Shown here piece by piece: positions 6,519 to 23,520 of a DNA stretch of 26,769 nt. Source of the stretch: Verrucomicrobia subdivision 3 bacterium UBA3939 (GTDB lineage Bacteria > Verrucomicrobiota > Verrucomicrobiia > Limisphaerales > UBA3939); contig DGDZ01000054.1 of assembly GCA_002385705.1 (NCBI GenBank), positions 386 to 27,154 of the forward strand. Reading direction: 5' to 3'. The position numbers and the translations under genes are program-made. The notes beneath the pieces were generated by a model, which saw only the letters and a program-made list of their open reading frames with translations, did no database searches and was not told the origin of the DNA. Each line of letters begins with the position of its first letter. The stretch's first letter is position 1.

Positions 6519-6573
6519 TCGACTGGATGGAATCCACTACTTGCGGAGTGCAGGGGATGACGGACGTTGAGGC

Positions 6574-6867: not shown

Positions 6868-9328
6868 CCGCCTGGAGGCTGGTCTTCAACGCTTCCACCA
6901 GTTTGTCGTGCGCCGCGTTCACCTCCGCATCGGTCAAGGTGCGTTCGGCACTGCGATACGTGAACGCATAGGCCATGCTCTTCTGGCCGGCAGGAATGTT
7001 CTTTCCGCGGAACACGTCGAACAGTTCCACCGATTCGAGATTGGCCGGTTTGGCTTTGCGCACGGTCTGCAGCACGGCTTCGTGCGTGACCGCTTCGGGC
7101 ACGACCATTGCCACGTCGCGCCGGCTCGATGGAAACGCAGGCAGCGGCTTGAAGGACTTCGCCGGGTTCCGCCGCGCGATCAACTGGTCGAAGCTCAGTT
7201 CCGCAAGAAAGACCGGGTCGCGCAGGTCATACTGACGGGCGAGGGCGGGATGCAGTTGGCCCATTTCGCCCAGGGGCAGTTTGCCGATCTGCACGTCGGC
7301 CGATTCGACGAACAGTCCTGCGGCTTCCGGGCGTCGGGTGTAGACCAGACCGCGCACGCCGAAGTGTTCAAAGAACTCCTCAAGGAATCCCTTGAGATCG
7401 TGCAGGTCGAACTTCGCGCCGCGCCCACTGCCGCTCCAGAAGAGCGGATCGCGCTGTCCGGTCAGGGCGATCGCGACGCGGCGTTCCTCCCGGATCTGTT
7501 CGCCCTGCCTGGAGAACACGCGTCCGATCTCGAACAGGCCGACGTCGTAGTTCTTCCGGTTCACGTTGTGCCGCAGTGCGTGGATCAGGCCCACCAATAG
7601 CGTGGGGCGCAACACGTCCATGTCTGCGCTGAGCGGATTGGCCAGGTCCACCAGGTGAACGCCGGATCTCGAGTTTTGAACCTCGGATCTGGAGATCAGC
7701 GTCTGGCCCTGGGCTTCGTTCAGGCCGAGGCCGGTCAACAGGCGCCGCGCTTCGGCAATTTGATCGTGCACGGCATCGAACTCGTTCGAACCAATGGCGC
7801 CGCGCGGCGGCGTGGCGGGGATCTTGTCAACGCCATGGAGCCGCGCGACCTCCTCGATGAGATCGACCTCGCGTTTCAGATCCACGCGGAAGCTCGGGAT
7901 GCGGAAGGTGGCGGGTTCGACCGGTGCGTCCGCGCCAACGGGTTTGGGCTTGCGATGGGTAATCTTCAATCCGAGCTGGCCGAGGTAATACTCGACTTCC
8001 TCGGGTTTGAGCTCGATCCCGAGCAGTTCGTTGACCTTGTGATGCCGCAAGGTGATCTCGCGCGGAGCGGCGGGTTTGGGATACGCATCGACGACACCGG
8101 CGGCGAGCGTTCCGCCGGCGGTCTCGAGAATCAGTTGCGCGGCGCGTTGGCTGGCCCAGTCGCAGATGCCCACGTCGGCCCCGCGCTCGAAGCGGTAGCT
8201 GGATTCGCTGCGCAGGCCGAGCGCCTTGCTGGTGCGGCGGATATTGCCGGGATGGAAGTTGGCGCTTTCGATCAACACATCGACCGTGCGTTCGTTGATC
8301 TCGGTGTTCTGGCCGCCCATGATTCCGGCGAGTGCGATGCCTTTCTGTTCGTCGGCGATCAGCAGCATATCCGCGTTGAGCACGCGCTGCTGGCCGTCGA
8401 GCGTTGTGAACTTCTCCCGGTCGGTCGCGCGGCGCACCACAATGGCGGGCTTCCCGTCCGCGCCCGGGGCGATAAGGTGATAGTCGAACGCGTGCAACGG
8501 CTGGCCGACTTCCATCATGACGTAGTTCGTCACGTCCACCACGTTGTTGATGCTGCGGATGCCGACCTTCTCGAGGGTGGTGCGGAGCCAGTCGGGGCTG
8601 GGGCCGATCTTCACGCCCTGAACCACGCGCGCCGTGTACCGCGGACACAATTCAGGGTCGGCAATACGCACGGTGACAAGACTCGACACCGGGGTCGCGC
8701 TTTCCTGGATTTTGATCTCGGGCAGGCGGAGAGGATTGCCCGTGAGGGCGGCGATTTCGCGAGCGATGCCGATGACGCTGTTCCAATCGGGCCGGTTCGG
8801 CGTGGTTTCCAGGTCGAACATCTCGTCGCTGCCGCCGCGCCCGAGGTACTCCGAGAACGGCTGGCCGACTTTGGCGTCCTCGCGCAGGATCAGCAGGCCT
8901 TCCTCGCGCTTGAGGCCGATGCTCTCCGGATCGATGCCGAGTTCATCCGCCGAGCACATCATTCCGTGCGATTCGACGCCGCGGATTTTGCCGACCTTGA
9001 TGGTAAATGGTTCCTTTTCGCCCGGTTTTAACGGCAGCGAGGCGCCCGGGAGGATCAGCGGAACCTTGTCGCCGGGCTTGAAATTGTTGGCGCCGCACAC
9101 GATCTGCCGCTCGCCCTGGCCGTCGTTGACGCGGCAGACGGAGAGTTTGTCGGCGTTCGGATGTTTGTCGCGGGTGAGGACCTGGGCGACGACGATGCCT
9201 TCGAACTCGCCGCCGATTCTGTGAATGCCTTCGACTTCCAAGCCGAGCATGGTGAGTCGATCGGCCAGTTCATCCGCCGACCAATCGAAATCCACGTACT
9301 GCCTGAGCCAATTCAGAGTGACTTTCAT
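6851..9328 (-). CDS. pheT: Phenylalanine--tRNA ligase beta subunit. The ORF is open to 9367 with a non-ATG first codon. The conserved N-terminus MKVTLNWLRQYVDFD starts 13 codons in.
   Basis: The canonical PheT N-terminus (MK..LNWLR.YV) is present. The tRNA-binding, B3/B4, B5 and C-terminal FDX-ACB-like regions are recognisable (e.g. HAFDY, MGGQNTEI). Length is 825 aa. Confidence 0.95.
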   Translation of the reverse strand: MKVTLNWLRQYVDFDWSADELADRLTMLGLEVEGIHRIGGEFEGIVVAQVLTRDKHPNADKLSVCRVNDGQGERQIVCGANNFKPGDKVPLILPGASLPLKPGEKEPFTIKVGKIRGVESHGMMCSADELGIDPESIGLKREEGLLILREDAKVGQPFSEYLGRGGSDEMFDLETTPNRPDWNSVIGIAREIAALTGNPLRLPEIKIQESATPVSSLVTVRIADPELCPRYTARVVQGVKIGPSPDWLRTTLEKVGIRSINNVVDVTNYVMMEVGQPLHAFDYHLIAPGADGKPAIVVRRATDREKFTTLDGQQRVLNADMLLIADEQKGIALAGIMGGQNTEINERTVDVLIESANFHPGNIRRTSKALGLRSESSYRFERGADVGICDWASQRAAQLILETAGGTLAAGVVDAYPKPAAPREITLRHHKVNELLGIELKPEEVEYYLGQLGLKITHRKPKPVGADAPVEPATFRIPSFRVDLKREVDLIEEVARLHGVDKIPATPPRGAIGSNEFDAVHDQIAEARRLLTGLGLNEAQGQTLISRSEVQNSRSGVHLVDLANPLSADMDVLRPTLLVGLIHALRHNVNRKNYDVGLFEIGRVFSRQGEQIREERRVAIALTGQRDPLFWSGSGRGAKFDLHDLKGFLEEFFEHFGVRGLVYTRRPEAAGLFVESADVQIGKLPLGEMGQLHPALARQYDLRDPVFLAELSFDQLIARRNPAKSFKPLPAFPSSRRDVAMVVPEAVTHEAVLQTVRKAKPANLESVELFDVFRGKNIPAGQKSMAYAFTYRSAERTLTDAEVNAAHDKLVEALKTSLQAVIREQ

Positions 9329-9386
9329 TGGGGCGGCAACGGTAATTGGCGGGGAGGAGGCAGTCAACAGAGGGGGTTAAGGAAAA

Positions 9387-9436
9387 CACCCAACATCCAA
9401 ACACCCAACCTCCAACACCGAACATTCAACATCCAA
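9387..9436. repeat. Tandem heptanucleotide array, 7 units of CAYCCAA on the plus strand (TTGGRTG on the pheT-sense strand): cacccaa catccaa acacccaa cctccaa caccgaa cattcaa catccaa.
   Basis: Read directly. It is located 59-108 nt upstream of the pheT start, inside the pheT / SPFH divergent region. Confidence 0.6.
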
Positions 9437-9579
9437 TGAGGACGGCTCCAACAAGGCAAAGCTGAAGAGCTGAAATCAGAGTCAAGGAACCGTTTGCGGC
9501 TCGGTGGGCGTGATGTTCATTCCTGCTTGCTCCACGTGACAGCCGATCGGGCAACACAACGTTTTTCTGAAGAAATCGC

Positions 9580-9606
9580 TTGACGTTAATATCGAAGTGA
9601 TATCAC
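9580..9606 (+). promoter_or_regulatory. Candidate sigma70-type promoter for the SPFH operon: TTGACG followed by an extended -10 (tgaTATCAC).
   Basis: ttgacg at 9580-9585; gTGaTATCAC at 9597-9606. The AAAGGA Shine-Dalgarno is 9 nt before ATG 9634. Confidence 0.3.
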
Positions 9607-9633
9607 ATCGATACCAAGAAAGGACCTGTGAAT

Positions 9634-10644
9634 ATGAACTCGAATCCTGTGAAGTCGGTCAGTCGCGAGCGAACGGTCAACGCGGTCAATGGCTGGGCCA
9701 TGTTGTTCTTCAATGTCCTGCTCCTGCTGGGCGGAATAGCCGGGATCGTCGCAACGGTGACGAAGGTCGCGCGCACCAATGATCCGGCGTATCTCTGGTG
9801 GCTTGTTCCGTTCATATTCCTCGAGTTGCTTGCTTTCATCCTGATGTTCGGTCACTTCACGCTGCAGCCGAACGAGGCGCGGGTGTTGATCCTCTTCGGC
9901 GCCTACAAGGGAACCGTGCGCGAGAGCGGGTTCTGGTGGGCGAACCCGTTCTATTCCCGGGTCCGGACGAAAGTGCCGGTGCGTCCGACGACGGTGAACG
10001 TGCAGAGGGGGACTCACGGGCGCGATGTGGCGAGCGTCGTGCACCTGACGCGGGGAACGAAGATTTCGTTGCGCGCGCAGAATTTCAACAGCGACAAGCT
10101 GAAGGTGAACGACAAACGCGGGAACCCGATCGAGATCGCCGCGGTCGTGGTGTGGCGGGTGAAGGACACCGCGAGGGCGGCGTTCGACGTGGACGATTAC
10201 GAGAGTTACGTGCACATCCAGAGCGAGGCGGCGATCCGTCATATCGCGAGCCTTTACGCGTATGACCGCGGGGACGAGCATGAGCCGACGTTGCGCGAGA
10301 GCACGGACGAGGTGTCGGCGGGTTTGATGAAGGAGCTGCAGGAGCGTCTGGAGAAGGCGGGCGTGGTGGTCGAGGAAGCGCGTCTGACGCACCTGGCGTA
10401 TGCGCCGGAGATTGCGCAGGCGATGTTGCGCCGGCAGCAGGCGGAGGCGGTGATTGCGGCGCGGCAGAAGATCGTGCACGGTGCGGTGAGCATGGTGGAT
10501 ATGGCATTGCGCGAATTGGCGGACAAGGCTGTGGTGAAGCTGGACGACGAGCGGAAGGCGGCGATGGTGAGCAACCTTCTGGTGGTGTTGTGCAGCGAAT
10601 CGGAGACGACGCCGGTGATCAATACGGGCACGCTGTATGCATAG
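9634..10644 (+). CDS. SPFH / band-7 (stomatin-prohibitin-like) membrane protein. The ORF track begins at GTG 9628, but the ATG at 9634 has better Shine-Dalgarno spacing.
   Basis: N-terminal TM ([18 protein letters not shown]... [18 protein letters not shown]), then SPFH-like blocks ([36 protein letters not shown]), then an A/E/R-rich helical C-terminus. Confidence 0.8.
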
Positions 10645-10649
10645 GACTC

Positions 10650-10814
10650 ATGCCTGAAGAGCGAAAGTCATTCCTGTTGCGGATCCCGCCCGATTTGTGG
10701 AAGGAGCTCGAGAAGTGGGCGGCGGACGAGCTGCGCAGTGTGAACGGGCAGATCGAATACATCCTGCGCCAGGCGGTGGAGAAACGCCGCCGGGCGCAGG
10801 AAAAGGAGGAATGA
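10650..10814 (+). CDS. Small Arc/MetJ-type ribbon-helix-helix DNA-binding protein (54 aa). It is 6 nt downstream of the SPFH gene.
   Basis: [47 protein letters not shown] matches the Arc-like beta-strand (SFLLRIP) plus two-helix pattern of PF03869-like proteins. The ORF track's upstream start at 10590 overlaps the SPFH gene and is not needed. Confidence 0.6.
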
Positions 10815-10836
10815 CGAAGGCAAGCCTTCGACGCCC

Positions 10837-10857
10837 CACACCGAACCTCCAACCTCC
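10837..10857. repeat. Short second copy of the heptad family: caccgaa cctccaa cctcc.
   Basis: It uses the same heptad units as 9387..9436 in the same orientation, 23 nt after the RHH gene stop. Confidence 0.45.
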
Positions 10858-11024
10858 GGGGCTCATTCTCGCCATTTTTCCCGTAGGGACTGCCGGGAAC
10901 AGCCCACCGCTCCGGCTAACGCGGCAGGCTGTCGGTTGTCCTTTCGGGAAGAAGAAACGGGCAGGCGCGGGTTGAATCCGGGACGCCACGCGGGTGCGGT
11001 TTCGAAAATCGCGCGGAATTTATA

Positions 11025-11052
11025 TTGGCACCCGCTTATTGTTCATGATAAC
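11025..11052 (+). promoter_or_regulatory. Weak candidate promoter for the flotillin-like gene (TTGGCA -N17- tGATAAC).
   Basis: It sits in the 330-bp gap before 11145. A strong Shine-Dalgarno (GAGGA) is 6 nt before ATG 11145. Confidence 0.2.
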
Positions 11053-11144
11053 CACGGAGCCATTACAGACGACCGTCTGTATGGCCAAATGAACCCGCTT
11101 TGCAAAAATCATTCGGGAGGAATCCCCTAACAACTTGAGGACCT

Positions 11145-13322
11145 ATGTTCTGGCTTAAACTTCTCATCGCATTTGTTGTCGTGGTCGCGATGTTTCTGGG
11201 AGTGGCATCGCTCTTCTGCATTCGCAAGATTCAGCCCGGCCGCGCCGGTGTGAAAACCGGCTGGGGCGGGATCAAGGTGTCCTTCGACTGGATGATCCGG
11301 ATCCCGCTGGTCCAGACCTATCACATCGTCGATATCTCGGTGAAGAAGCTCGAGATCTCGCGCAAAGGCAAGGACGGGCTGGTGTGCAAGGACAACATTC
11401 GCGCGGATATCTCGGTGGCATTCTACATCCGCGTGGAAGCGACGGAGGAAAGCGTGCGGAAGGTGGCGCAGATGCTGACGCCGGAGCGCGTGTCGGATAT
11501 GGTGCAGTTGCGGGAGCTGTTCGAGGCGAAGTTTTCCGAGGCGCTCAAGACGGCGGGCAAGCAGATGGAATTTCACGAGCTGTTCACGGAGCGGATCAAG
11601 TTCCGCGATCAGATCCAGGCGACGATCGGCAAGGACCTGGACGGGTTCCTGTTGCAGGACGTGGCGATCGACTACCTCGAGCAGACGCCGCTGGATCAGC
11701 ATGATCCGGACAACGTGCTCGACGCGGAGGGCATCAAGAAGATCACGCAGATCACGCAGCGCGAGCGGGTGGTTGCGAACGAGCACGCCCAGCGCGCCAG
11801 CGTGCAGATCGAGAAGGAGAACGCGGACGCGGACATTGCGCGGCGCGAGCAGAAGCGGCGCAACGAAGAGGACAATGCGCGGCAGACGCGTGCGATCACC
11901 GAGGTGCGGGCCAACGAGGAGGCCGAAGCGCGCAAAGTGATCGAAGCCCGCCGGCTCGAGGTTGAGGCCAAGCGGCTGGAAGTGGACGAGGCGATCCGGT
12001 TGCGGACGGAGGACATGAACCGCGCCGTGCAGGAGCGCGAATACACGGTGAAGAAGGAGCGCCAGCGGCTCGAACAGGAAGCGCTGCAGGAGGGCGAGGA
12101 AGCGCGCGTCCGGCGCGAGCGCACGGTCGCCCTGGCCGAGCTGGACAAGGACGCGAAGGTCGCGGAAGCCGGTGTCGAGGTCGAGCGCAAGCGCGCGATC
12201 GTCGTCGCCGAGCAGAAGGCCGTCGTCCAGCAGGAGGAGGAGAAGCTGAATATCGAAGCGCGCATGACCGCCGAGCGCGTGCGCGAAGTGACGCTCATCG
12301 AGGCGGACATGAACGCCAAGAAGGAGCAGGTGGAGAAGGTGGTGGCGGCCGAGGCGCAGAAGGAGGCCGAGCAGCACATGGCGGAAGCCGAGAAGATCAA
12401 GGTGATCACCGCGGCGGAGGCGGCGCGCGAAGCGGCGTTGCGCGAAGCCGAGCGCATCCAGACCATCGCGGAGGCCGAAGCGAAGGCGTCCGAGCGCAAG
12501 CGTCATGCGATGGAGCAGGAAGCCGAGGGTGTCGCGGCGCAGGAAGCCGCCAAAGGCATTGCCGAGGCGAAGGTCATCACGGCCAAGGCCGGCGCGAAGA
12601 AGGTCGATGCGGCGGCGATCCGCGAGTTGGGCCTGGCCGAGGCGGATGTGATCAAGGCCAAGGGCGACGTGACGGCGGAAGTGACGCAGATGCAGGCCGA
12701 GGCGGAAGCGGAAGGCACGAAGGACAAGGAGCTGGCGACTGCGGCCGGCATCCAGGCCAGGGGCCTTGCCGAAGCGAAAGCCATCGAAGAGAAGGCGAAA
12801 GCGATGAAGCTGCTGCACGAGGCGGGGCAGGCGCACGAGGAATTCCGCCTGCGCCTGGCGAAGGAGCGCGACGTCGAGCTCGCCGCCATCAACGTGGAAC
12901 GTTACATCGCGGAAGCGCACTCGAACATCGTGGGCGAAGCGCTCAAGAACGCGAAGATCGACATCGTGGGAGGCGAGAACGACTTCTTCGAGAAGGTGGT
13001 GCGGGCCGTGGGCAGGGGCAAGGCCGTGGACCGGCTGGTCCAGAGCAGCGCCACGCTGACCGACCTCAAGACCAGTCTGTTCAACGGCGACGCGGAACAC
13101 TTCCGGGCGAAGCTGCGGCAGTGGGTGAAGGACTTCGGGGTCACGAGCGAGGACCTGAAGAACCTCACTGTGGCGGCGTTGCTGGCGAAACTGATCGCAT
13201 CGACGAAGGACAGCGGGCTGCAGTCGGTTCTCCGGTCGGCTCAGGCGATGGCAAAAGAGAGCGGGCTGGGCGACGTGCTGGCTTCGTCCGTGATTTCGGA
13301 ACCCGAGCTTGCCAAGCTGTAG
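11145..13322 (+). CDS. Flotillin-like protein (SPFH domain plus a long E/A/K/R-rich coiled coil, YqiK/FloT-like), 725 aa.
   Basis: N-terminal TM LKLLIAFVVVVAMFLGVASLF, then an SPFH core (TYHIVDISVKKLEI...ADISVAFYIRV), then ~350 aa of EA-repeat coiled coil and a globular C-terminal tail. This is the typical flotillin architecture. Confidence 0.85.
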   Translation: MFWLKLLIAFVVVVAMFLGVASLFCIRKIQPGRAGVKTGWGGIKVSFDWMIRIPLVQTYHIVDISVKKLEISRKGKDGLVCKDNIRADISVAFYIRVEATEESVRKVAQMLTPERVSDMVQLRELFEAKFSEALKTAGKQMEFHELFTERIKFRDQIQATIGKDLDGFLLQDVAIDYLEQTPLDQHDPDNVLDAEGIKKITQITQRERVVANEHAQRASVQIEKENADADIARREQKRRNEEDNARQTRAITEVRANEEAEARKVIEARRLEVEAKRLEVDEAIRLRTEDMNRAVQEREYTVKKERQRLEQEALQEGEEARVRRERTVALAELDKDAKVAEAGVEVERKRAIVVAEQKAVVQQEEEKLNIEARMTAERVREVTLIEADMNAKKEQVEKVVAAEAQKEAEQHMAEAEKIKVITAAEAAREAALREAERIQTIAEAEAKASERKRHAMEQEAEGVAAQEAAKGIAEAKVITAKAGAKKVDAAAIRELGLAEADVIKAKGDVTAEVTQMQAEAEAEGTKDKELATAAGIQARGLAEAKAIEEKAKAMKLLHEAGQAHEEFRLRLAKERDVELAAINVERYIAEAHSNIVGEALKNAKIDIVGGENDFFEKVVRAVGRGKAVDRLVQSSATLTDLKTSLFNGDAEHFRAKLRQWVKDFGVTSEDLKNLTVAALLAKLIASTKDSGLQSVLRSAQAMAKESGLGDVLASSVISEPELAKL

Positions 13323-13337
13323 AGGCGCCGCGGCGCT

Positions 13338-13358
13338 CCGGAGCGGACGCGTGTCCGC
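13338..13358. repeat. REP-like element (ccggagcg + hairpin gcggac-gcgt-gtccgc) in the 54-bp flotillin / giant-gene spacer. It is preceded by the 12-nt perfect palindrome gcgccgcggcgc.
   Basis: Read directly. Confidence 0.45.
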
Positions 13359-13376
13359 CCCGAACTGGTTTCGATC

Positions 13377-16300
13377 ATGGCCAGGAAAAAGTCAGATCCA
13401 CCCGCGCCGGTAGAGGCCACCGCTGCCGGCGCGCCGTCGGAGGCTTCACCCGCGTCCGATTCGGCGGCGCAGGCGCTGGGCAGCGCCACGTACGAGATCA
13501 TCCGGCAGCGCCTGCACGGGCTGGGCTCGACGTTGCGCGAGCGGATGTCGCAGTTGAACCGCCGGCGGCAGGAGGTGTTCGGCTCGGTCGAGTTCAAGCT
13601 GTTGCAGGCCGATCGCGTGGTGACGGCGCACAACTGCATTCCGCGCGACATGGTGCAGTTGGGCGATCAGCAGTTCCTGTTCGGGTTCAACGTGCAGTTC
13701 GGGTTGAAGAAAGAGATCGGCCTTGCGGACGTGTTTGCGATCTACACGCGCGACGAGGCGTCCGGGACATTCAAGGAGGCGGGGCTTGAACCGTTGCAGG
13801 ATCCGAACTTCGTCACGGATTTCAAACGGCTCTACAACGTTTACGAGAAGGCGTTCTTCGCCAAGTTCTCCGTCATCGAGGGCAAGCTCTACATGGTGTT
13901 CCGCGTGGGCACGAGCGTGACGGACATCGCCGTGTTCAAGTGGGCGTTCGATGACGGCCGGCTGCACTATGTGGACGGGCGGGCGGAGACCGAGTACCGC
14001 CGTGTCGGCTTTCCGCCGCAATACGAGTTCGCGTGGCGCACGCCGGACCGCGAGTCGTTCCGCTACGGCGACCACCCGCATGTTTCGATCGAGGATCGCG
14101 TTTTCGTCGAATGCGTCGGTGGCGACATCACGATCAAGGTCGAGGACAACACGAAGACGGGGGAGGGCATTTATTCGGAGCCGGTGGAGGACAAGTATCA
14201 GAAGGTGGACGACGCGGAGATCGCGTATGCGATCATCGGGCACGTGATTCTGTTGAAGATGCGGCCGTACAAGGAGAACCGGCCGCGGTACTTCATTTAC
14301 AATGAGAAGACCCAGACGGCGCACCGGGTGGATTCCATCGGGCAATCGTGCGCGCTGTTGCCGGAGGACCACGGGTTGATCTTCCCGGACGGGTATTACC
14401 TGGGGACGGGGGAATTGAAGCTGTTCGAGAGCAAGGAACAGGGAATGGCGATCGAGCGGGTCGTGCATTCTCCGAACGGCGAGGACGCGCTGTATGTCTT
14501 CTACAACCGCGAGAGCGGCGAGTACGTGCTGATGCCGTACCGATTGATTCCGCAGAAGGTGGAGGAACGCATCACCTGCCATGGCTTCTCGCTGTTCCCG
14601 TCCGGACACCTGCTGCTGTTCCGGGCGGAGGCGGAGCCGCAGAAGCACCACATGATTCAGTTGCGGCAGACGCCGTTCTATCAGCCCGGTTATGAACCGG
14701 CGGGACGAAAGGACGCGTTCCTGTATCAGGTCGGCAACAAGGACGTGGTGCGCTGCCTCGCGGAGTGCAACGAGGTGCTGACGCTGGTTGAAAAGGAGGA
14801 CCCGTACCCGGAGCTGTACGCGGATCTGGTGATGCGTTGCACGGCCATGCTGGACGCGTATCCGTGGCTGTCGGGCGAGGACGGGTTCAAGTTGGACGAA
14901 GCGCTGCGCGAGATCCGGAACGCGGCGGACAGGGCGGTGGACGAGTTCGACAAGGTGCGCCGCCTCAAGCGCGAGGCGGTGCAGCGCGTCAGCGACGTGC
15001 GCAAGCGGTGCGACGAACGGTTCCAGACCATCCGCCGCGCGAGCCTGAAGGCGCTGGGCGATTACGTCGTGAACCTGGCGGCGCTGCGCCAGTTGCGCGG
15101 GGAATTGATCACGCTCAAAGAGGTGCGCTACGTGGACCTCGCCCAGGTGGAGCTGATCGAGAAGGACGTGATCGCCCGGACGGCCGAGCTGTCGGACGCA
15201 ACGGTGAAGTTCCTGCTCAAACCGGAATCGCTGGACCCGTATCGGAAGCAGGCGGCCGGGTTTCTCGCGCAGGCCGGCAAAATCGCGAAGGTCGCCGAGG
15301 GCCGCGAACTCGAGAAGGCGGCTTCGGCCTCGGGCGCCGAGCTCGAGATGCTCATCGAGATCGTCAACAGCCTGAAGATCGAGGACGCGACGGAGACGAC
15401 GCGGATCATCGACGGGATCACGGCGGTGTATTCGACGTTGAACCAGGTGAAGGCGGCGTTGAAGCAGCGGATGCAGGAGCTGGCGGCGCACGAAGGGGCG
15501 GCGCAGTTCGCGGCGCAGATGAAGCTGCTGGGCCAGGCGGCGGCGAGTTATCTCGACCTGTGCGATACGCCGGCGCGTTGCGACGAGTATTTGAACCGGC
15601 TCACGGTGCAGATCGAGGAGCTCGAGGGGGTCTTTGCCGATTTCGAGGAATACACGGTGCAGTTGTCGGAGCGCCGGACCGAGCTGTACGAGGCGTTCGA
15701 GCAGCGGAAACTGGCATTGATCGAGCAGCGCAACCGGCGGGCGGGCGCGCTGATGACCGCGGCGGAGCGGATCCTGAAGGTGATCCAGAACCGTTTGAAC
15801 GGGTTCAAGACGGCCGAGGAGATCAACACCTACATGGCTTCGGACCTGATGGTCGCGAAGGTGCGGGAGATCATCGACCAGTTGATAGCGCTGGAGGACT
15901 CGGTCAAGGCGGACGATCTCGAGGGCCGGCTCAAGAGCGCGCAGCAGGAGGCGGTGCGCCAGCTGAAGGATCGCCAGGAACTGTTCGTGGACGGCGCGCC
16001 GGTGATCCAGCTGGGCAAACACAGGTTCAACGTCAACACGCAGCCGCTGGACCTCACCGTGGTGCACCGGGACGGGGTTCCCTGCGTTCACCTGACCAGC
16101 ACGAAGTTCTTCGAAGAGATCACCGATCCGGAGTACCTGTCCACGCGCGACGTCTGGGACCAGGAGGTGGTGTCCGAGAACGCGGACGTGTACCGCTCGG
16201 AATACCTTGCCTATCAGCTTTTGCGATCGCTGGAACCGGGCAATGGCGGCGCCGACACGAAGGCCAATGGCGCGGTGTCCGGCGCAAAGGCGACGCCGGC

Positions 16301-18872
16301 CGAGGTGCTGGCGCGATCGGACGAAGAGCGGCTGGCGATGGTGCAGGAGTTCGCGAGCGCGCGGTACCAGGAGGGGTACACGAAGGGCGTTCACGATCTG
16401 GACGCCGCGCGGATCTTCAGCGCCTTGCTGAACGCGCACGTGGCGCTGGAACTGGCGCGGTATCGCCCGGCGGCGCGCGCCTGCGCGTCCGTTTTCTGGT
16501 GCCGCTTCTGCCCGGAACCGGTGCGCGCCCTCTGGACGGCGAAGCTCAAGGGGTTCTCCGAGCGGAACAAGCTGTTTCCCGGTGAACGCGTCCAGCGCAA
16601 TTACATCGCCGCGCTGCAGGAACTGGTGCGCGAGTTCCTGCGGAACACGCCGCTGTATCCGGAGGAACTTGCGGACGACGCGGGCGAATATCTGTTCCAT
16701 GAACTGACCGGCGGCGAGGTGTTTGTTGTCAGCCGCGAGGCGCACCAGTTGTCGGTTGAGTTCGAGAAGCATCTTGCGGCGAAGGACGGGCGGCGCGTGT
16801 TTGAGCGGGCGCTCCAGCCGCTGGCGGAGCACCCGGACAGCGCGCTCGAACTGACGCGCGACTGGGTGCGGGGCTTTCTGCTGGGACGCCTCGGCACGTC
16901 GCAGTATCTCGAAGAAGTGACGTCGATCCTGTTCTGCGGCGACAAGGTGAAGCGGTCGGTCGTTCAGGCGGGAACCACCTGCGTCATCGAGGGGATGAGG
17001 GGCAGCCATCCGCGGATCGACGGGAACCGGTATCACTTCGATTATTTGGACTTTCACGACCGGTTGCGCCGGTTCGAGCGCGACGTCGTGCCGCGCTTTG
17101 AGCGGCATCGCGCCTTGAAACAGCAGTTGCTGGATCGGGAACGCGCGCGCCTGCGGCTGGACGAGTTCAAACCGCGCGTGCTGACGTCGTTTGTGCGGAA
17201 TCAGTTGATCGACCGGGTGTATTTGCCGCTGATCGGGGACAACCTCGCGAAACAGATCGGCGCCGCCGGCGACCAGAAACGCACCGATCTCATGGGCCTG
17301 TTGCTGGTGGTCTCGCCGCCCGGGTACGGCAAGACCACTCTGATGGAATACATCGCCAACCGCCTGGGCATCGTGTTCGTCAAGATCAACGGCCCCGCCC
17401 TTGGCCCGAACGTGACGTCGCTGGATCCCGAGGAAGCGCCGAACGCCGCCGCGCGCGAGGAGATCCAGAAGCTGAACCTCGCGCTGGAGATGGGCGACAA
17501 CACAATGATCTGCGTGGACGACATCCAGCATTGCAACCCGGAGTTTCTGCAGAAGTTCATCTCGTTGTGCGACGCGCAGCGGAAGATCGAAGGTGTCTGG
17601 CGCGGGCAACCGCGCACCTACGACCTGCGCGGGCGCAAGGTCGTGGTCGTGATGGCGGGCAATCCCTACACCGAGAGCGGCCAGAAATTCCGGATCCCGG
17701 ACATGCTCGCGAATCGCGCCGACACGTACAACCTGGGCGACATCATCGGCGGCCACGCCGACGCGTTCAAATCGAGCTACATCGAGAACGCGATCACCTC
17801 CAACCCCGTGCTGGCCTCGCTGGCGAACAAGAGCCAGAAGGACATCCGCGCGTTCATCCGCATGGCCGAGTCCGGCGACCGCGCCGCCGACGGCTTCGAG
17901 GGCAGTTACTCGTCGCAGGAGGTTGAGGAGATCCTGTCAGTGATGAAGAAGCTGGTGGCGATCCGCGAGATGGTGCTGCGCGTGAACCAGGAATACATCC
18001 ATTCGGCCGCCCAGGCGGATGAATTCCGCACCGAGCCGCCTTTCCGCCTGCAGGGTTCGTATCGCAACATGAATCGCCTGGCCGAAAAGGTGGTGCCGAT
18101 CATGAACGACGGCGAGGTGCGCGCGCTCGTGGTGGAACATTACCGGAACGAAGCGCAAACGCTCACCACCGGCGCGGAGGCGAATCTGCTCAAGTTCAAG
18201 GAGATCATCGGCGAGCTCTCGCCGGAGGAGAAGGCGCGCTGGGAAGAGATCAAGAAGACCTTCAAGCGCAACCAGCTCGTGCGCGGCGGCGACCAGTCGG
18301 ATCCGGTGGGGCGCGTGGTCGGGCAGTTGTCCGCCTTCCAGTCCGGGCTGCAATCGATCCAGGAAACGCTCGAAAAGCAGTTGTCGAAAGCGCAGGCGCC
18401 GGTGGTGCTGGACCTGTCGCCCGTGGGGAAGGGGTTGGAAGCATTGCAGGCGACGGTGGAGAAGCGGCTCAGCGAGGTGGCTTCATTCAAGCCCGGGCCG
18501 GAGCCGCAGGGAGTGGCCGCGCAATTGAGCGAGGGGCTGAAGGCATTGCGCGAGGACCTTGCCCGCGCGATCACGGCGGTGCACACGGGCACAATGGCAG
18601 AGAAGCTGCAAAGCCTGTCGCACGAGCTGGAGATGATCCACAGCACGCTGGCGACGTTGAAGGATCTTGCCGAGCAGCAGCGGAATCATCTGCGCAACGC
18701 GCAGGAACTGCTGGCCACCCGCGCGCGCCAGGGAACGGTGGAAATCGATCTGACGCAGGAGATGCTGGCGAATGAGCAAATGTTCCTCGAGAAAGTTCAG
18801 CAGGTGCTGAGCGAGGTGAAGGGCGAAGTGCCGCCGCCTGAAACGCAACCGGGTGAGCAGGGCCAAACCTGA
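13377..18872 (+). CDS. Giant 1831-aa protein with three parts. The first ~1300 aa are an uncharacterised, largely beta-rich N-terminal region. A single MoxR / AAA_5-class AAA+ ATPase domain follows. The last ~370 aa are a C-terminal coiled-coil tail.
   Basis: Walker A LLVVSPPGYGKTTL (nt ~17313-17345). Walker B and MoxR-like block MICVDDIQHCNPEFLQKFISLCD. Sensor-1 block VVVVMAGNPYTESGQKFRIPDMLANRADTYNL. Amino-acid composition is normal on the plus strand, whereas the 1436-aa antisense ORF is R/L/A-biased. Confidence 0.85.
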   Translation: MARKKSDPPAPVEATAAGAPSEASPASDSAAQALGSATYEIIRQRLHGLGSTLRERMSQLNRRRQEVFGSVEFKLLQADRVVTAHNCIPRDMVQLGDQQFLFGFNVQFGLKKEIGLADVFAIYTRDEASGTFKEAGLEPLQDPNFVTDFKRLYNVYEKAFFAKFSVIEGKLYMVFRVGTSVTDIAVFKWAFDDGRLHYVDGRAETEYRRVGFPPQYEFAWRTPDRESFRYGDHPHVSIEDRVFVECVGGDITIKVEDNTKTGEGIYSEPVEDKYQKVDDAEIAYAIIGHVILLKMRPYKENRPRYFIYNEKTQTAHRVDSIGQSCALLPEDHGLIFPDGYYLGTGELKLFESKEQGMAIERVVHSPNGEDALYVFYNRESGEYVLMPYRLIPQKVEERITCHGFSLFPSGHLLLFRAEAEPQKHHMIQLRQTPFYQPGYEPAGRKDAFLYQVGNKDVVRCLAECNEVLTLVEKEDPYPELYADLVMRCTAMLDAYPWLSGEDGFKLDEALREIRNAADRAVDEFDKVRRLKREAVQRVSDVRKRCDERFQTIRRASLKALGDYVVNLAALRQLRGELITLKEVRYVDLAQVELIEKDVIARTAELSDATVKFLLKPESLDPYRKQAAGFLAQAGKIAKVAEGRELEKAASASGAELEMLIEIVNSLKIEDATETTRIIDGITAVYSTLNQVKAALKQRMQELAAHEGAAQFAAQMKLLGQAAASYLDLCDTPARCDEYLNRLTVQIEELEGVFADFEEYTVQLSERRTELYEAFEQRKLALIEQRNRRAGALMTAAERILKVIQNRLNGFKTAEEINTYMASDLMVAKVREIIDQLIALEDSVKADDLEGRLKSAQQEAVRQLKDRQELFVDGAPVIQLGKHRFNVNTQPLDLTVVHRDGVPCVHLTSTKFFEEITDPEYLSTRDVWDQEVVSENADVYRSEYLAYQLLRSLEPGNGGADTKANGAVSGAKATPAEVLARSDEERLAMVQEFASARYQEGYTKGVHDLDAARIFSALLNAHVALELARYRPAARACASVFWCRFCPEPVRALWTAKLKGFSERNKLFPGERVQRNYIAALQELVREFLRNTPLYPEELADDAGEYLFHELTGGEVFVVSREAHQLSVEFEKHLAAKDGRRVFERALQPLAEHPDSALELTRDWVRGFLLGRLGTSQYLEEVTSILFCGDKVKRSVVQAGTTCVIEGMRGSHPRIDGNRYHFDYLDFHDRLRRFERDVVPRFERHRALKQQLLDRERARLRLDEFKPRVLTSFVRNQLIDRVYLPLIGDNLAKQIGAAGDQKRTDLMGLLLVVSPPGYGKTTLMEYIANRLGIVFVKINGPALGPNVTSLDPEEAPNAAAREEIQKLNLALEMGDNTMICVDDIQHCNPEFLQKFISLCDAQRKIEGVWRGQPRTYDLRGRKVVVVMAGNPYTESGQKFRIPDMLANRADTYNLGDIIGGHADAFKSSYIENAITSNPVLASLANKSQKDIRAFIRMAESGDRAADGFEGSYSSQEVEEILSVMKKLVAIREMVLRVNQEYIHSAAQADEFRTEPPFRLQGSYRNMNRLAEKVVPIMNDGEVRALVVEHYRNEAQTLTTGAEANLLKFKEIIGELSPEEKARWEEIKKTFKRNQLVRGGDQSDPVGRVVGQLSAFQSGLQSIQETLEKQLSKAQAPVVLDLSPVGKGLEALQATVEKRLSEVASFKPGPEPQGVAAQLSEGLKALREDLARAITAVHTGTMAEKLQSLSHELEMIHSTLATLKDLAEQQRNHLRNAQELLATRARQGTVEIDLTQEMLANEQMFLEKVQQVLSEVKGEVPPPETQPGEQGQT

Positions 18873-18880
18873 AACGCAAT

Positions 18881-19714
18881 ATGAAAAGAATCATCAGACG
18901 AGTCCAGAACCTGGGCCAGAAAGCGGCCCAGCTCCAACAGGCCATTCAAAACGTGCCGCCGAAGATCGCGGAGGTGCGGCAGGCGGTGGCCATGACGACC
19001 GGGCAGTTACAGCAGTTGCGAGCCGACCTCCGGGCCGGCGCGGCGGACCTGCGCGCCGACAACGAAGGCAGCCTGGTGCAGGCGTTGAACGAAGTGAACG
19101 GCGCCACGCAGGTCTTCGAACAGGCCGGGTATGAACTGACGGGCGTGGACATGGAATTGAGTCCGAACCAGCGCCTGATCGTTCACCTGGCGCGTTTCGA
19201 AGTGGTGGATCAGAGAACGCTCCAGTCCCTGCTCAGGGCCAATCAGCATGCAAAGACCGTTCACGGCATTCTCTGGTCGTTGATCCGCGCCGAGGAAATG
19301 GCGGCGCAGGTGGACGTGACGAACATGGTTTACCGGGAACTCATTGTGCACGTCGGGCCGATTCCGTCGGTGCGGATGAGCTGGGGCTATGCCGAGGAGG
19401 AGGAGGAGGAGGCACCGGTGGCACAGCCGGCGCCCGTTCAGACGACCGTGGTGTCCGGTGCCGCGCCGGCATCGGCGTCCGCTCCGACACAGTTCGCACA
19501 AACGACGTTTTTCGAATCGCGGTCGGTGCCGCAGCCGCAGGGTTCGGCGGCGGTGGCGAGCACGGCGACTTCGGATGTTTCGGCGACAACGACCGTCGCG
19601 CCCGCGGGCCAGGCGGAGGAATCGAGAGAGATGACATCGGCCGATTGGCGGCGGGATGCGCTGGAGCGGTTGAAGAAGAACCCGCATGTCTCGAAGTATC
19701 AGCGGCGGTTCTGA
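18881..19714 (+). CDS. Hypothetical 277-aa protein with an N-terminal coiled coil (Q/A/L-rich), a poly-Glu tract (EEEEEE), an A/T/S/V/Q-rich disordered region and a basic C-terminus. Its start is 8 nt after the giant gene stop.
   Basis: The ORF is in frame. Its composition is protein-like and differs from the antisense frames. Its tight spacing suggests translational coupling to the giant gene. Confidence 0.5.
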   Translation: MKRIIRRVQNLGQKAAQLQQAIQNVPPKIAEVRQAVAMTTGQLQQLRADLRAGAADLRADNEGSLVQALNEVNGATQVFEQAGYELTGVDMELSPNQRLIVHLARFEVVDQRTLQSLLRANQHAKTVHGILWSLIRAEEMAAQVDVTNMVYRELIVHVGPIPSVRMSWGYAEEEEEEAPVAQPAPVQTTVVSGAAPASASAPTQFAQTTFFESRSVPQPQGSAAVASTATSDVSATTTVAPAGQAEESREMTSADWRRDALERLKKNPHVSKYQRRF

Positions 19715-19773
19715 GGTTTACATGGCCTGTCGGGGCACCGCGACTTCCGGCTTCGCCTGGTGTTGGCGTTGTT

Positions 19774-20115
19774 ATGATTGAGAGGGTCGTTCTGATATTC
19801 TCCGGCGGCGCCGGTCTGTTGGTCCTGGCTCTGGGCATTGCCGCGTTTGTCCGCGCTCGAAATACTCCAGCCTCAAACGCGTGCATTAACAATCTGAGGC
19901 ATCTGAATGCCGTCAAGCAGCAGTGGGCGGTGGAGAACTCAATGAGCACGAACGCAATGCCGACATGGGAAGCCCTTCGCCCATATATGTCGAAGGCGGA
20001 ACAGGAAGGCCGGCCGGTCAGGCTTGTGTGTCCTGAGGGCGGAGTGTATCTGCCGGGCCGCACGGGCGATGCGCCCACCTGTTCGATCGGCGGACCGGAC
20101 CATACGCTGCACTGA
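19774..20115 (+). CDS. Small membrane-anchored protein (113 aa) with a pilin / pseudopilin-like N-terminus that lacks a prepilin leader. It contains a CxNNLR(H/Q)L motif reminiscent of H-X9-DG / DUF1559-type proteins.
   Basis: MIERVVLIFSGGAGLLVLALGIAAFVRARNTPASNACINNLRHLNAV resembles the FTLIELLVVIAII...CxNNLKQI pattern. The ORF is open from 19645, but that extension has no start codon and no hydrophobic logic. Confidence 0.4.
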   Translation: MIERVVLIFSGGAGLLVLALGIAAFVRARNTPASNACINNLRHLNAVKQQWAVENSMSTNAMPTWEALRPYMSKAEQEGRPVRLVCPEGGVYLPGRTGDAPTCSIGGPDHTLH

Positions 20116-20135
20116 TCAGGGAGCATCGCCTGCCT

Positions 20136-20672
20136 ATGTCACGCCGACAGAAATGGATCTGGATCGGGCTGTTTGTGGTGATTCTCTCCGCACCGTTGTG
20201 GCTGTCCTTCCTTGGTTTTTTCGCGTGGTCGCCTGTCAACTGCTGGCATTACGACGTGGACATCCGGAGCGGAAGGGTTCGTTACACTCGCTATCTGCTC
20301 TTTGCGCAGGTGGCGCAACGCGTGGAAGAGACGGCCCTGAGCAAAGCTCTGCAGCCCGAAGATCTTGCGGGCGTGCAGCCGGACTGGCACCGCGTCGCTG
20401 CTTTTTCGCCGGGAGTCCACCACTCGCCGCACTACACATTCCATTCCGCCCTCGGGCAAATGCGCGAGTTGGAGATGATCTGGAGAACCGGTGGGTTCAC
20501 GCCGGCAGCTCGCCGCGCCAGCGCCCGGCAGGTCCTGCGGCTCTGGCAGCGACACGGGCATGATGGCTCGGCACAGGAGTATTTGCGGGCTCTTTCCGAA
20601 ATTGCGCTTCGCAGTGATGTGGCATCCAAAGGCACGGATGAGGAAGATCTGCCGGCACCCGAGCAGCCATAG
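20136..20672 (+). CDS. Hypothetical N-terminally anchored membrane protein (178 aa).
   Basis: TM segment WIWIGLFVVILSAPLWLSFLGFFAW. The gene lies 20 nt after the previous gene and is followed by an intrinsic terminator. Confidence 0.45.
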   Translation: MSRRQKWIWIGLFVVILSAPLWLSFLGFFAWSPVNCWHYDVDIRSGRVRYTRYLLFAQVAQRVEETALSKALQPEDLAGVQPDWHRVAAFSPGVHHSPHYTFHSALGQMRELEMIWRTGGFTPAARRASARQVLRLWQRHGHDGSAQEYLRALSEIALRSDVASKGTDEEDLPAPEQP

Positions 20673-20686
20673 TCGAATCCACTCAC

Positions 20687-20710
20687 GCGGGCGTTTCACC
20701 CGCCCGCTTT
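20687..20710 (+). terminator. Rho-independent terminator: gcgggcg-tttcacc-cgcccgc followed by TTT. It closes the plus-strand block.
   Basis: A 7-bp GC stem and a T-run on the plus strand, 15 nt after stop 20672. It overlaps the last codons of the convergent methyltransferase gene. Confidence 0.55.
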
Positions 20711-21604
20711 GCGTCCGCAGAGCCAGTGAGGTTTGATCCAGAAATGCAGGCGGGCGCCCATGTTGATGAACTGCGTCATGCCGCACTGGCGCATGTGCGC
20801 GGTCAACTCGCGGCGGCTCAGGCCGATCTCGTGCGTGTTCGACAGCCTGGCCACCCGATACGAGGAGAACGTGTGAACCAGGTTGGGCTCGTTGCAGAGC
20901 AACAGCCAGCCCCCGGGTTTCAGGCATTCCGCCGCGGATTGGATCGCCTCGCGCCAGGAGAACGCGTGATGCAACGCTTCATAAACGAGCACCGCGTCGT
21001 AATAGCCCTTCGGGCCGACGTCTTCGGCGACGGATTCCATGGGCGCGACTTCAAAGCGCAGGACGCGTTGGAGTCCCTTGGCTTCGAGGCTGGCGATGCG
21101 TTTGCGCGCCCATTCAATGCTGGACGCGGCAATAGAGGTGCCCGTGACTTCGTATCCGATCGCGGCGAGGAACTCGGAAGTCCAGCCGAAGCCGCATCCC
21201 ATCTCCAGCACCCGGGCGGGAGGCAGGATGCCGCAACGTTCGAGTGATTCGTGGATCAGACAGAAGTCGCGCAGGTAGGTCCGGAGCCGCGGGCCCACCC
21301 AGAACGGTTTCTGCATGTCGGCGAGGGCGGCGGTTTCGAGCGTGACGCCCGGGAGCGATTCCGAGCACTCGATCTCGGCCCTGTAGGTGGCTTCGCGGTC
21401 TTCGAACCTGGGCGGAAACAACCCGGCGGCGTAGTCGCGCAGGATCAGGTGGAGCCCAGCCTGAAGCTTCTCGCTCCTGGACAATTGCATGTTCCAGTGC
21501 TTGCAGTTGGCCTCGTAAAGATTCTTCCCCCGGCGAAGCAAGGGGCTTTCCGCCAGCCACCCGGCGAGCCGCCGCAGAGGTGTCACTTCGCCGGCGCGCG
21601 CCAT
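20696..21604 (-). CDS. Class I SAM-dependent methyltransferase.
   Basis: Motif I VLEMGCGFGWTSEFLAAIGYEVTGTSIA. Motif post-I/II region DAVLVYEALHH. KPGGWLLL is present. Its start is 1 nt after the pheS stop, on the same strand. Confidence 0.8.
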   Translation of the reverse strand: MARAGEVTPLRRLAGWLAESPLLRRGKNLYEANCKHWNMQLSRSEKLQAGLHLILRDYAAGLFPPRFEDREATYRAEIECSESLPGVTLETAALADMQKPFWVGPRLRTYLRDFCLIHESLERCGILPPARVLEMGCGFGWTSEFLAAIGYEVTGTSIAASSIEWARKRIASLEAKGLQRVLRFEVAPMESVAEDVGPKGYYDAVLVYEALHHAFSWREAIQSAAECLKPGGWLLLCNEPNLVHTFSSYRVARLSNTHEIGLSRRELTAHMRQCGMTQFINMGARLHFWIKPHWLCGRKAGG

Positions 21605-21605
21605 A

Positions 21606-22637
21606 TCAGAATTGCTTCAGGAAACGCAGGTCGTTCTCGTAGAACAACCGGATGTCGGTGATCCCGTAACGGATCATCGCGATGCGCTCGATGCCGAACC
21701 CGAACGCCCAGCCCGTCCAGACCTCCGGATCGTAACCCACATTCTCGAACACCTGCGGATGCACCATGCCGCACCCGGCGATCTCCAGCCACTCCTTGCC
21801 CATCTTCCGGACGAGCGAACTGGTGAAATCGATCTCGAAACTCGGTTCGGTATAACTGAAGTAGTGCGGGCGAAACCGGATTTTCACATCCGATCCCATC
21901 AGTTCCTTGAACACGAACTCGACAGTGCCTTTCAGGTCGGCCGCGGTGACCCCTTTATCGACGTACAATCCTTCGACCTGCTGGAAGGTCGGGTTGTGCG
22001 TGGCATCGGCGTTGTCGCGCCGGTAAACGCGGCCCGGCACGATGATGCGCACCGGCGGCGGCTGCTTCTTCATCACGCGGATCTGCACCGAGCTCGTGTG
22101 CGTGCGCAGCAGCAATGACTTCGGACCCCGGATTTCGGATTTCGGGTCGTTCTGAAGGTAAAAGGTGTCCTGTGTATCGCGCGCCGGGTGATCGGCCGGC
22201 GTGTTCAACGCGTCGAAACAATGATACTCGTCCTCGACCTCGGGCCCGTCGGCGACGGCGAAGCCGATTTTGCGGAAACTGCGGACGATGTCCTCGGTGA
22301 CCTGGGTGAGCGGGTGCAGTCTGCCGAGGACGCGCCGACGGCCGGGCAGGGTGAAGTCGGCCGGCTCGGACGGCATGGCGGCTTTCAATTCGAGCTCGCT
22401 GCGGCGGCGCGCGAGCACGGTTTCGAGCTCGGCTTTGGCGGCGTTGATGGCCTTTCCGGCGGCGGGTTTTTCCTCTTTGGGAAGCGAGCCGAGCTGCTTC
22501 ATGAGGGCGGTGAAGCGGCCGTGCGGGCCGATCCAATTGCCCTTGGCCTGCTCGAGCGCGGCAAGGTCAGCGGCATTCTGCAGGTCGGCCAGACCCGCGG
22601 ACTTCAACGGTTCAATCTGATCGATTAATCCAGCCAT
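21606..22637 (-). CDS. pheS: Phenylalanine--tRNA ligase alpha subunit.
   Basis: Class II aaRS motifs and the diagnostic PheS C-terminus are present (FGFGIERIAMIRYGITDIRLFYENDLRFLKQF, HPARD, GLYVDKG). Confidence 0.95.
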   Translation of the reverse strand: MAGLIDQIEPLKSAGLADLQNAADLAALEQAKGNWIGPHGRFTALMKQLGSLPKEEKPAAGKAINAAKAELETVLARRRSELELKAAMPSEPADFTLPGRRRVLGRLHPLTQVTEDIVRSFRKIGFAVADGPEVEDEYHCFDALNTPADHPARDTQDTFYLQNDPKSEIRGPKSLLLRTHTSSVQIRVMKKQPPPVRIIVPGRVYRRDNADATHNPTFQQVEGLYVDKGVTAADLKGTVEFVFKELMGSDVKIRFRPHYFSYTEPSFEIDFTSSLVRKMGKEWLEIAGCGMVHPQVFENVGYDPEVWTGWAFGFGIERIAMIRYGITDIRLFYENDLRFLKQF

Positions 22638-23310: not shown

Positions 23311-23520
23311 TCAGTGGGTGAAGGGCAGGTTCTGCTTGATGCGGTATTCGTCCGCGGGATGCACGGTGGTGGTGCCGCGCAGATTGCGACGGCGCTTGGG
23401 ATTCTTGGTCTGGGCCAGATGCCGTTTCCCTGCCCTGGCGCGCAGGACCTTGCCGCCGGCCGTCACCTTGAAACGCTTGGCCACGGATTTCCGGGTCTTG
23501 ATGCCTTTTGGACGTCGCAT
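23311..23520 (-). CDS. rpmI: 50S ribosomal protein L35.
   Basis: PKGIKTRKSVAKRFKVTAGGKVLRARAGKRHLAQTKNPKRRRNLRG matches the L35 pattern (AKRFK..G.GK...R....KRH). It is a 69-aa basic protein, 17 nt upstream of rplT. Confidence 0.9.
   Translation of the reverse strand: MRRPKGIKTRKSVAKRFKVTAGGKVLRARAGKRHLAQTKNPKRRRNLRGTTTVHPADEYRIKQNLPFTH

Follow-up and report, generated by a model that had tools for sequence, protein, structure and literature searches.

A flotillin and AAA+ ATPase gene set among the variable cargo of the pheS-pheT spacer in Limisphaerales

We analyzed a stretch of 26,769 nucleotides (hereafter, the window) from Verrucomicrobia subdivision 3 bacterium UBA3939, a member of the Limisphaerales (contig DGDZ01000054.1, positions 386 to 27,154), in which the phenylalanyl-tRNA synthetase genes pheS and pheT are separated by a block of genes on the opposite strand. 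The listing of open reading frames (ORFs), Pfam searches and public gene calls place the two genes of this soil Verrucomicrobium 12.3 kb apart, with seven plus-strand genes (9634-20672) between them. On the minus strand, the 825-aa pheT product (6851-9328; public gene call) matches the Pfam families B3_4, B5, tRNA_synthFbeta, FDX-ACB and tRNA_bind, and its gene starts with the ATG at 9328, a TTG at 9367 opening the longest ORF. Beyond the block, also on the minus strand, Pfam and public gene calls identify a class-I S-adenosylmethionine-dependent methyltransferase gene (20696-21604; called on identical contigs), pheS (21606-22637), rplT (22925-23293) and rpmI (23311-23520). The order and strand of rpmI, rplT, pheS and pheT in the Pfam results are those of the canonical cluster, and the original prediction of a co-linear minus-strand array (rpmI-rplT-pheS-methyltransferase and pheT) interrupted by approximately 11.4 kb of plus-strand genes was confirmed by Pfam and public gene calls. 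The window is 100% identical to contig DUWF01000113.1 (GCA_012842865.1, labelled "Verrucomicrobia bacterium"), and its layout is shared by 19 contigs of independent samples (identity of at least 99.99%). This recurrence across several samples excludes a misassembly.

From the pheT side, the block encodes a 336-aa SPFH/Band-7 membrane protein (9634-10644; Pfam Band_7, E-value 1.7e-25), a 54-aa Arc/CopG-like ribbon-helix-helix (RHH) protein (10650-10814; PF07878 RHH_5, 1.4e-6; Arc, 1.1e-3), a 725-aa flotillin of the YqiK/FloT type (gene flot, 11145-13322), a giant AAA+ ATPase of 1831 aa (13377-18872), a 277-aa protein (p277, 18881-19714) and two small proteins with N-terminal hydrophobic segments that derive from gene calls (113 aa, 19774-20115; 178 aa, 20136-20672). 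We refer to the genes for the flotillin, the ATPase and p277, its third member, as the triad. A 92-aa ORF at 10697-10975 had also been considered as the RHH gene and was set aside as spurious, the real gene being that at 10650-10814. The GC content of the block (0.57-0.67) equals that of its flanks, in agreement with the original prediction. Pfam matches of the block proteins include no integrase or transposase domain, a tRNA scan found no tRNA, and hence no tRNA integration site, and a scan against Rfam matched no family, so that no leader RNA was detected. Among the hallmarks of a mobile island (a recombinase, a tRNA or att target, flanking repeats and deviant composition), the only feature encountered is a 16-nt motif repeated around the SPFH-RHH pair. 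In PADLOC searches, the ATPase matched LmuB only weakly, through a coiled coil (1.9e-6), and the other six block proteins had no match; NCBIfam provided no informative equivalog for any block protein.

The 725-aa flotillin comprises an N-terminal transmembrane (TM) helix, an SPFH domain and a long coiled coil rich in glutamate and alanine. Neither this protein nor two of its distant homologues matches any Pfam model (Band_7 and Flot included) even at E-values up to 1, indicating that the family is too divergent for these models. A profile of 16 family members aligned with hhalign to E. coli YqiK nevertheless spans the TM helix, the SPFH domain and the coiled coil (probability 100, E-value 3.3e-41, 390 columns, 31% identity), and the flotillin label of the original prediction is therefore right despite the missing Pfam match. 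In every locus that reaches far enough upstream, down to 39% identity of the ATPase, flot lies directly upstream of the ATPase gene and in the same orientation. A transposase gene of the IS200/IS605 Y1 type and a 121-aa ORF (9176-9993) split the flotillin gene from the ATPase gene of a triad that is intact in other respects in one related locus (L138; we number related loci with the prefix L), and its sister L088 lacks both. Gene calls and ORF picks revealed no gene of approximately 215 aa that might encode an NfeD/YqiJ-type partner upstream of flot, either in the window or in the Verrucomicrobial loci checked.

Comparison of loci further uncovered a conserved promoter-like motif of the triad on the plus strand (11016-11055), consisting of GGAATTnTATTGGC, a spacing of 16-18 nt and TGnTAACCAC, that precedes flot by approximately 130-200 nt in the majority of the Verrucomicrobial triads inspected. 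Both parts of the motif occur in 11 loci (the window, L014, L086-L089, L093, L094 and L138-L140), and L104 has the first half only.

The ATPase contains a DUF3686 domain (residues 53-495), a DUF7902 domain (618-701) and a single AAA+ module with the Walker A sequence SPPGYGKTT (GYGKT near residue 1316) and the Walker B sequence ICVDD. When compared to solved structures, the module resembles p97/Cdc48 around Walker A only and the family profile finds no relative. Taken together, the searches of solved structures with the ATPase, its family profile, the flotillin and p277 return nothing beyond this Walker A resemblance and a coiled-coil similarity to QmcA. Residues 1-520 are predicted by AlphaFold2 to fold as a long helix followed by an all-beta domain (predicted local distance difference test [pLDDT] 73.6). 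The best 120 clusters of ATPase relatives show 68-75% identity, and those with a named source are Verrucomicrobia, annotated as "DNA repair ATPase" or "AAA family ATPase". A literature search retrieved no paper mentioning DUF3686 or PF12458.

Immediately downstream, p277 has 111 homologues, none with a functional annotation and all with Verrucomicrobia as taxon label. Its structural model (pLDDT 76) predicts a helical hairpin (residues 2-57), a confident alpha/beta domain (62-170), a disordered linker composed of Pro, Ala, Ser and Thr that holds the conserved motif F.QSSFFE.R, and a C-terminal helix with the conserved motif DW..AL.RFKKMP..SKY. The protein is encoded downstream of the ATPase gene in Verrucomicrobia-type loci only, and a hidden Markov model of p277 detected no homologue among the ORFs of the distant modules.

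The arrangement of the window was placed in context through a genome scan with pheS, which provided 80 species-level relatives, all of them Limisphaerales or "subdivision 3" metagenome-assembled genomes with 77-87% pheS identity, onto which the window proteins were mapped. Sixty-nine of these loci were informative for the distance between pheS and pheT. The two genes are less than 100 nt apart in eight, 0.1-1 kb apart in 11, 1-3 kb in 26 and 3-8 kb in nine, and the remaining 15 have no pheT within at least 9 kb of pheS. As controls, the distance from rpmI to rplT has a median of 43 nt and a maximum of 123 nt, and that from rplT to pheS a median of 181 nt, exceeding 1 kb in 7 of 63 relatives. 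Set against the rpmI-rplT control, these distances identify the pheS-pheT spacer as the variable point of the cluster. The premise of the original prediction, that pheS and pheT are normally adjacent, thus fails in this order (8/69), and in the window the two genes are neither adjacent nor free of intervening opposite-strand genes, as a co-transcribed pheST pair would be. Insertions of 3-9 kb between rplT and pheS in 6 of the 63 relatives (L007, L048, L053, L065, L075 and L080), together with one of 1 kb in L024, point to a second interruption point of the cluster in some lineages. A literature search found no paper on the pheS-pheT operon in Verrucomicrobia.

The material found in the gap is heterogeneous. 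The Pfam matches of 92 gap ORFs comprise 10 PIN toxins with VapB/MazE antitoxins, eight carbonic anhydrases, six methyltransferases, five phosphodiesterases (PDEs), five PAP2 proteins, two XhoI restriction-modification pairs and two Lhr helicases. A pair of small genes recurs directly after pheS, encoding 68 and 128 aa in L021, L037, L045, L052 and L054 and 72 and 127 aa in L038. Their lengths agree with those of the VapB-type antitoxins and PIN toxins matched among the gap ORFs, which suggests a favoured landing site for toxin-antitoxin pairs. At two loci unconnected with pheST (L144 and L145, 13893-15938), fragments matching class-II tRNA synthetases and HGTP_anticodon flank a PIN_3 gene, joined in L145 by a PhdYeFM antitoxin gene; here, toxin-antitoxin cargo may have broken up a further aminoacyl-tRNA synthetase gene.

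The genes on either side of the gap are shared among relatives with and without the triad. The order pabB-pabC-rpmI-rplT-pheS-pheT is unbroken in L044, pheS and pheT are 6 nt apart in L001, and L002 combines pabBC on one side with the PGPGW gene on the other, as in the window, around a different cargo. Beyond rpmI, pabB-pabC occurs in the window, L002, L044 and L096. Beyond pheT, genes for the PGPGW protein and/or ManC occur in the window, L087 and L139, and equally in the triad-less L001, L002, L026, L027, L040, L049, L050, L057 and L071. These shared neighbors show that orthologous flanks surround the gap in triad-bearing and triad-less genomes alike. Orthologues of the methyltransferase gene lie between pheS and pheT in L006 and next to pheT in L018 and L030. 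The original prediction of an insertion into pheST consequently stands insofar as orthologous flanks are found both around the block and where it is absent (L044, L001 and L002), but not as a single module specific to this genome. Likewise, the synteny comparison that it called for does return pheS-pheT or pheS-methyltransferase-pheT (L006) where the block is absent, and other cargo in the gap of further relatives.

Two further observations concern these flanks. Upstream of rpmI, the window (23978-26355) and L081 (20603-22881) encode PabC-like (Aminotran_4) and PabB-like (Chorismate_bind) proteins in place of infC and thrS, and the usual infC-rpmI-rplT linkage is also missing in the window. 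On the other side, a 97-aa membrane protein of the PGPGW family (6574-6867, plus strand), chosen by the public gene calls, is convergent on pheT; because this gene is kept beside pheT in triad-bearing and triad-less relatives, the overlapping 161-aa minus-strand ORF at 6346-6831 is probably spurious.

We then examined the contexts of the triad in seven homologues and 49 metagenome loci. At the species level, at least six lineages other than that of the window have it beside pheS, pheT or both. In L086 and in L087/L096, which has additional cydAB genes towards pheT, pheT and pheS enclose the triad, which is convergent on pheS as in the window. It adjoins only pheS in L088, L138, L094 and L014 (co-directional with pheS in the latter), only pheT in L139, and pabC/pabB, in the absence of rpmI-rplT-pheS, in L104; in L095, L115, L091, L140 and L141 it is located elsewhere. 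According to the original prediction, finding pheS and pheT unlinked by the same gene set in all related genomes would have pointed to ancestral synteny of the lineage rather than to an insertion. That outcome is partly approached, given the identical placement and orientation in L086 and L087 and the position beside pheS or pheT in L088, L138, L094, L139 and L014.

The proteins of the triad have diverged along with those of their hosts. Pairwise identities of the pheS, flot, ATPase and p277 products are 93, 88, 81 and 71% for L014 and L087, 93, 85, 87 and 79% for L088 and L094, and approximately 84, 80, 74 and 52% for other pairs, and these two sister pairs are recovered alike by all four proteins. 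The triad proteins of the window are 73-75% identical to those of relatives (ATPase, 73-75%), and its pheT product 72-75%. This divergence in step with host genes argues that the arrangement is old and vertically inherited and excludes a recent acquisition, bearing out the original expectation, here with reference to pheS, that any insertion would be old. We also computed bootstrapped neighbor-joining (NJ) trees for the single genes pheS and pheT. The pheT tree groups the window with L002, L007 and L087 (85.5% bootstrap; 96.5% for the inner trio), and the pheS tree groups L064 with L088 and L138 (86%). With these two supported groupings, genomes that carry the triad and genomes that lack it are closely related in at least two parts of the trees.

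The SPFH-RHH pair at the pheT end of the block has a different distribution. The SPFH protein is very widespread, with E-values of 1e-20 or below for all of the 8000 candidates scored, and among the 120 matches listed its identity outside the species is 70-81%, those with a named source being Verrucomicrobia. Together with its RHH gene it stands alone at unrelated loci, near VTT and PQQ genes in L143 and near rpmB and smpB in L144/L145, and, among the loci compared, it occurs beside the triad or pheS/pheT in this species only. A near-perfect 24-nt palindrome (9590-9613) lies approximately 25 nt ahead of the SPFH start, and its core, ATAT..TGATATCA.A.CGATA, is invariant at about the same distance from the start of the SPFH orthologues at the unrelated loci L143 and L144. 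This inverted repeat is probably an operator for autoregulation by the RHH protein.

A second DNA motif, the CCAAC-rich 16-nt ACACCSAACMTCCAAC, occurs in three tandem plus-strand copies at 9386-9430 (three matches compared to 0.22 expected). A fourth copy after the RHH gene (10838-10853) means that the copies bracket the SPFH-RHH pair. None was found in related loci outside this species, which led us to reject the notion of a widespread repeat element; the motif could be an insertion footprint, an element of the pheT leader or a product of chance. At the pheS end of the block, the two small ORFs have no homologue in the fetched loci outside this species (for the 113-aa ORF, by tblastn). The block is therefore not the self-contained module of the original prediction: it consists of three units with separate histories and distributions.

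The layout also bears on how the flanking genes are transcribed. The methyltransferase gene starts 1 nt past the pheS stop codon, making its co-transcription with rpmI-rplT-pheS probable, and these four genes would be expressed as a transcript of their own, convergent on the block. Situated behind seven opposite-strand genes, pheT requires a promoter of its own, and on reading the sequence the divergent intergenic region between pheT and the SPFH gene (9329-9633) is the only place for it. We thus infer that pheT is transcribed from this region, in which a scan for the sigma-70 consensus found no site. Between the convergent 178-aa ORF and methyltransferase genes lies a GC hairpin followed by TTT (20687-20710, plus strand), a weak terminator candidate. 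Its GC stem of 5-7 bp (20687-20707) is followed by only three T residues, compared to the five or more expected after the GC-rich stem of a Rho-independent terminator, its loop contains the methyltransferase stop codon, and its fold z-score is -2.2; a terminator scan made no call here. The intrinsic terminator originally attributed to the block is hence not borne out.

Taken together, these data lead us to regard the block as a layered occupant of a variable pheS-pheT slot, an account that we consider rather probable, in which later additions flank an old and vertically inherited triad. The oldest layer would be the triad with its own promoter-like motif (11016-19714), which would have been inserted between pheS and pheT, with its orientation inverted, in an ancestor common to several Limisphaerales species, to be inherited vertically thereafter and lost or relocated in many lineages. 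Later, in this species or its recent ancestors, the putatively autoregulated SPFH-RHH pair would have been gained on the pheT side and the two small ORFs on the pheS side, with the methyltransferase gene carried at the tail of the pheS transcript. The identities of the genes, the composite make-up of the block, its synteny, the co-divergence and the variability of the slot are observed, whereas we infer the direction of these events, the transcription units and the biochemical function.

Several observations weigh against this account. The deep nodes of the NJ trees are weak (10-40% bootstrap), and a single origin followed by many losses is inseparable from a few independent captures. A resident triad that shifted position within each genome would also be expected to diverge together with host genes. 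Tight adjacency of pheS and pheT is scattered over the tree, a pattern more easily explained as the ancestral state than by repeated precise deletion. We looked for relics of the triad genes and of the flot promoter motif in triad-less gaps (L002, L007, L064 and others) and found none. Finally, the triad lies within 10 kb of pheS in only 1 of approximately 69 species when sampling starts from pheS, compared to about half when it starts from the ATPase.

The strongest alternative, which we judge possible though clearly less probable than layered vertical inheritance, is that the pheS/pheT junction is a hotspot for insertion or rearrangement, on which a triad resident elsewhere in these genomes landed independently in several lineages, including this one. 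Such recurrent capture would accommodate the interspersion of triad-linked and triad-less taxa in the pheS and pheT trees, the co-directional triad of L014, the many unrelated cargoes that occupy the same gap and our failure to find deletion scars in triad-less gaps. It would also fit the grouping, at 86% bootstrap, of L064 (pheS-PDE-pheT) with L088 and L138 (pheS-PDE-triad, no pheT), for which a single inversion would suffice. In contrast, independent landings do not readily explain why the window, L086, L087, L088 and L094 agree in the position and convergent orientation of the triad, nor are they favored by a block that lacks integrase, transposase and att-like repeats; furthermore, the triad of L104 is still found at pabC/pabB, as though only the rpmI-pheS segment had departed.

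A selected coupling, whereby convergent transcription or a shared stress response would tie membrane-stress genes to the expression of phenylalanyl-tRNA synthetase, appears unlikely to us. The triad is linked to pheS, to pheT or to both in seven or more lineages, which is consistent with such coupling, as is the tail-to-tail arrangement of pheS and the gene for the 268-aa p277 homologue (p268) in L087, which end 10 nt apart. Around half of the sampled triads, however, reside elsewhere (e.g. L095, L115, L091, L140 and L141), distant homologues show no linkage to pheS or pheT, and the junctions tolerate unrelated cargo. Least plausible of all, and in our view very improbable, is that a self-contained island of 11 kb was recently inserted by horizontal transfer into what had been an intact pheST operon in this genome, since the 6-19 nt separating pheS and pheT in some relatives, the opposite strand of the block and the hairpin after its last gene are outweighed by the matching GC content of block and flanks, the lack of detectable mobility genes and tRNAs, the differing distributions of the block units, triad protein identities (73-75%) that match those of pheT (72-75%), and the same arrangement in L086 and L087.

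Returning to the layered account, a more far-reaching version may be envisaged, which we put forward as a rather doubtful conjecture. An ancient inverted insertion of the triad would have provided pheT with its own promoter and freed the spacer across the order, turning it into a landing pad in which toxin-antitoxin, restriction-modification, helicase and membrane-stress genes are repeatedly gained and lost at a protected site between two essential genes. In this version the triad would be a remodelling machine built from an SPFH scaffold and an AAA+ ATPase, with p277 as a lineage-specific adaptor whose conserved C-terminal helix docks on the ATPase.

As to function, the predicted domains and the pairing of a scaffold with an AAA+ protein in HflK/C-FtsH and in ESCRT-III/PspA-Vps4 lead us to propose that the triad acts as a machine for membrane stress or membrane remodelling. 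In it, the flotillin would build a scaffold on the membrane's inner face; this scaffold or its clients would be assembled, remodelled or cleared by the AAA+ ATPase, and p277 would serve as a lineage-specific adaptor. Irrespective of this proposal, the locus reveals that a highly conserved bacterial operon, pheST, is routinely split throughout one order, and orthologous flanks with and without cargo permit the reconstruction of its gain and loss. The triad itself, conserved at approximately 70% identity across 1800 residues and preceded by a conserved promoter-like motif of its own, constitutes an uncharacterised but well-defined target for studies of flotillin-scaffold remodelling.

The locus can be compared to several known systems. 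With respect to the canonical rpmI-rplT-pheS-pheT cluster, it differs by the opposite-strand genes between pheS and pheT and by pabC/pabB, rather than infC, upstream of rpmI. Like HflK/C-FtsH and ESCRT-III/PspA-Vps4, to which we draw an analogy, the triad pairs the gene for a membrane scaffold with that for an AAA+ ATPase; unlike them, it presents no protease domain, MIT domain or ESCRT-III homology. The 725-aa flotillin aligns with YqiK, encoded by E. coli yqiJK (yuaFG, or floT, in B. subtilis), along the TM helix, the SPFH domain and the coiled coil. In contrast to those operons, the window has no NfeD/YqiJ partner, its flotillin is approximately 170 residues longer than YqiK, and it is coupled to an AAA+ ATPase.

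The closest resemblance is to a pairing of flotillin and giant AAA+ ATPase that has already been described, on computational grounds only, in section 19 of Popp et al. (2024, mSystems, PMC11237479). The operon outlined there comprises a Band-7/flotillin protein, a beta-propeller AAA+ ATPase and a YqiJ/YuaF protein, is associated with PspA, and sometimes includes a CesT/Tir-PspA dyad and a PLD hydrolase, with abbreviated forms being widespread. As in that description, the window encodes a flotillin with TM, SPFH and coiled-coil segments directly upstream of a very large AAA+ ATPase, in which a helix or coiled coil at the N terminus is accompanied by a beta-rich domain. Further points of contact come from the relatives of the triad. 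In distant members of the ATPase family (39-52% identity), a gene for a YqiJ/NfeD-like membrane protein (YqiJ_N, 2.7e-4) precedes flot, and the distant modules of low-GC genomes place a PspA/IM30 gene (1.6e-35) ahead of the YqiJ/NfeD-like gene. In L141, a gene of the PLD/HKD superfamily (16431-17129) directly follows the p277 homologue, as that section reports for Proteobacteria. The Verrucomicrobial locus departs from the operon as outlined there in lacking a YqiJ/NfeD-like gene and the CesT/Tir-PspA dyad, in encoding a lineage-specific 277-aa protein downstream of the ATPase, and in its site inside a split pheST. With components that all fall into known classes and a pairing already predicted in 2024, this is no new kind of system; rather, the Verrucomicrobial triad, with p277, without an NfeD partner and set within a split pheST, is a new form of a computationally known operon.

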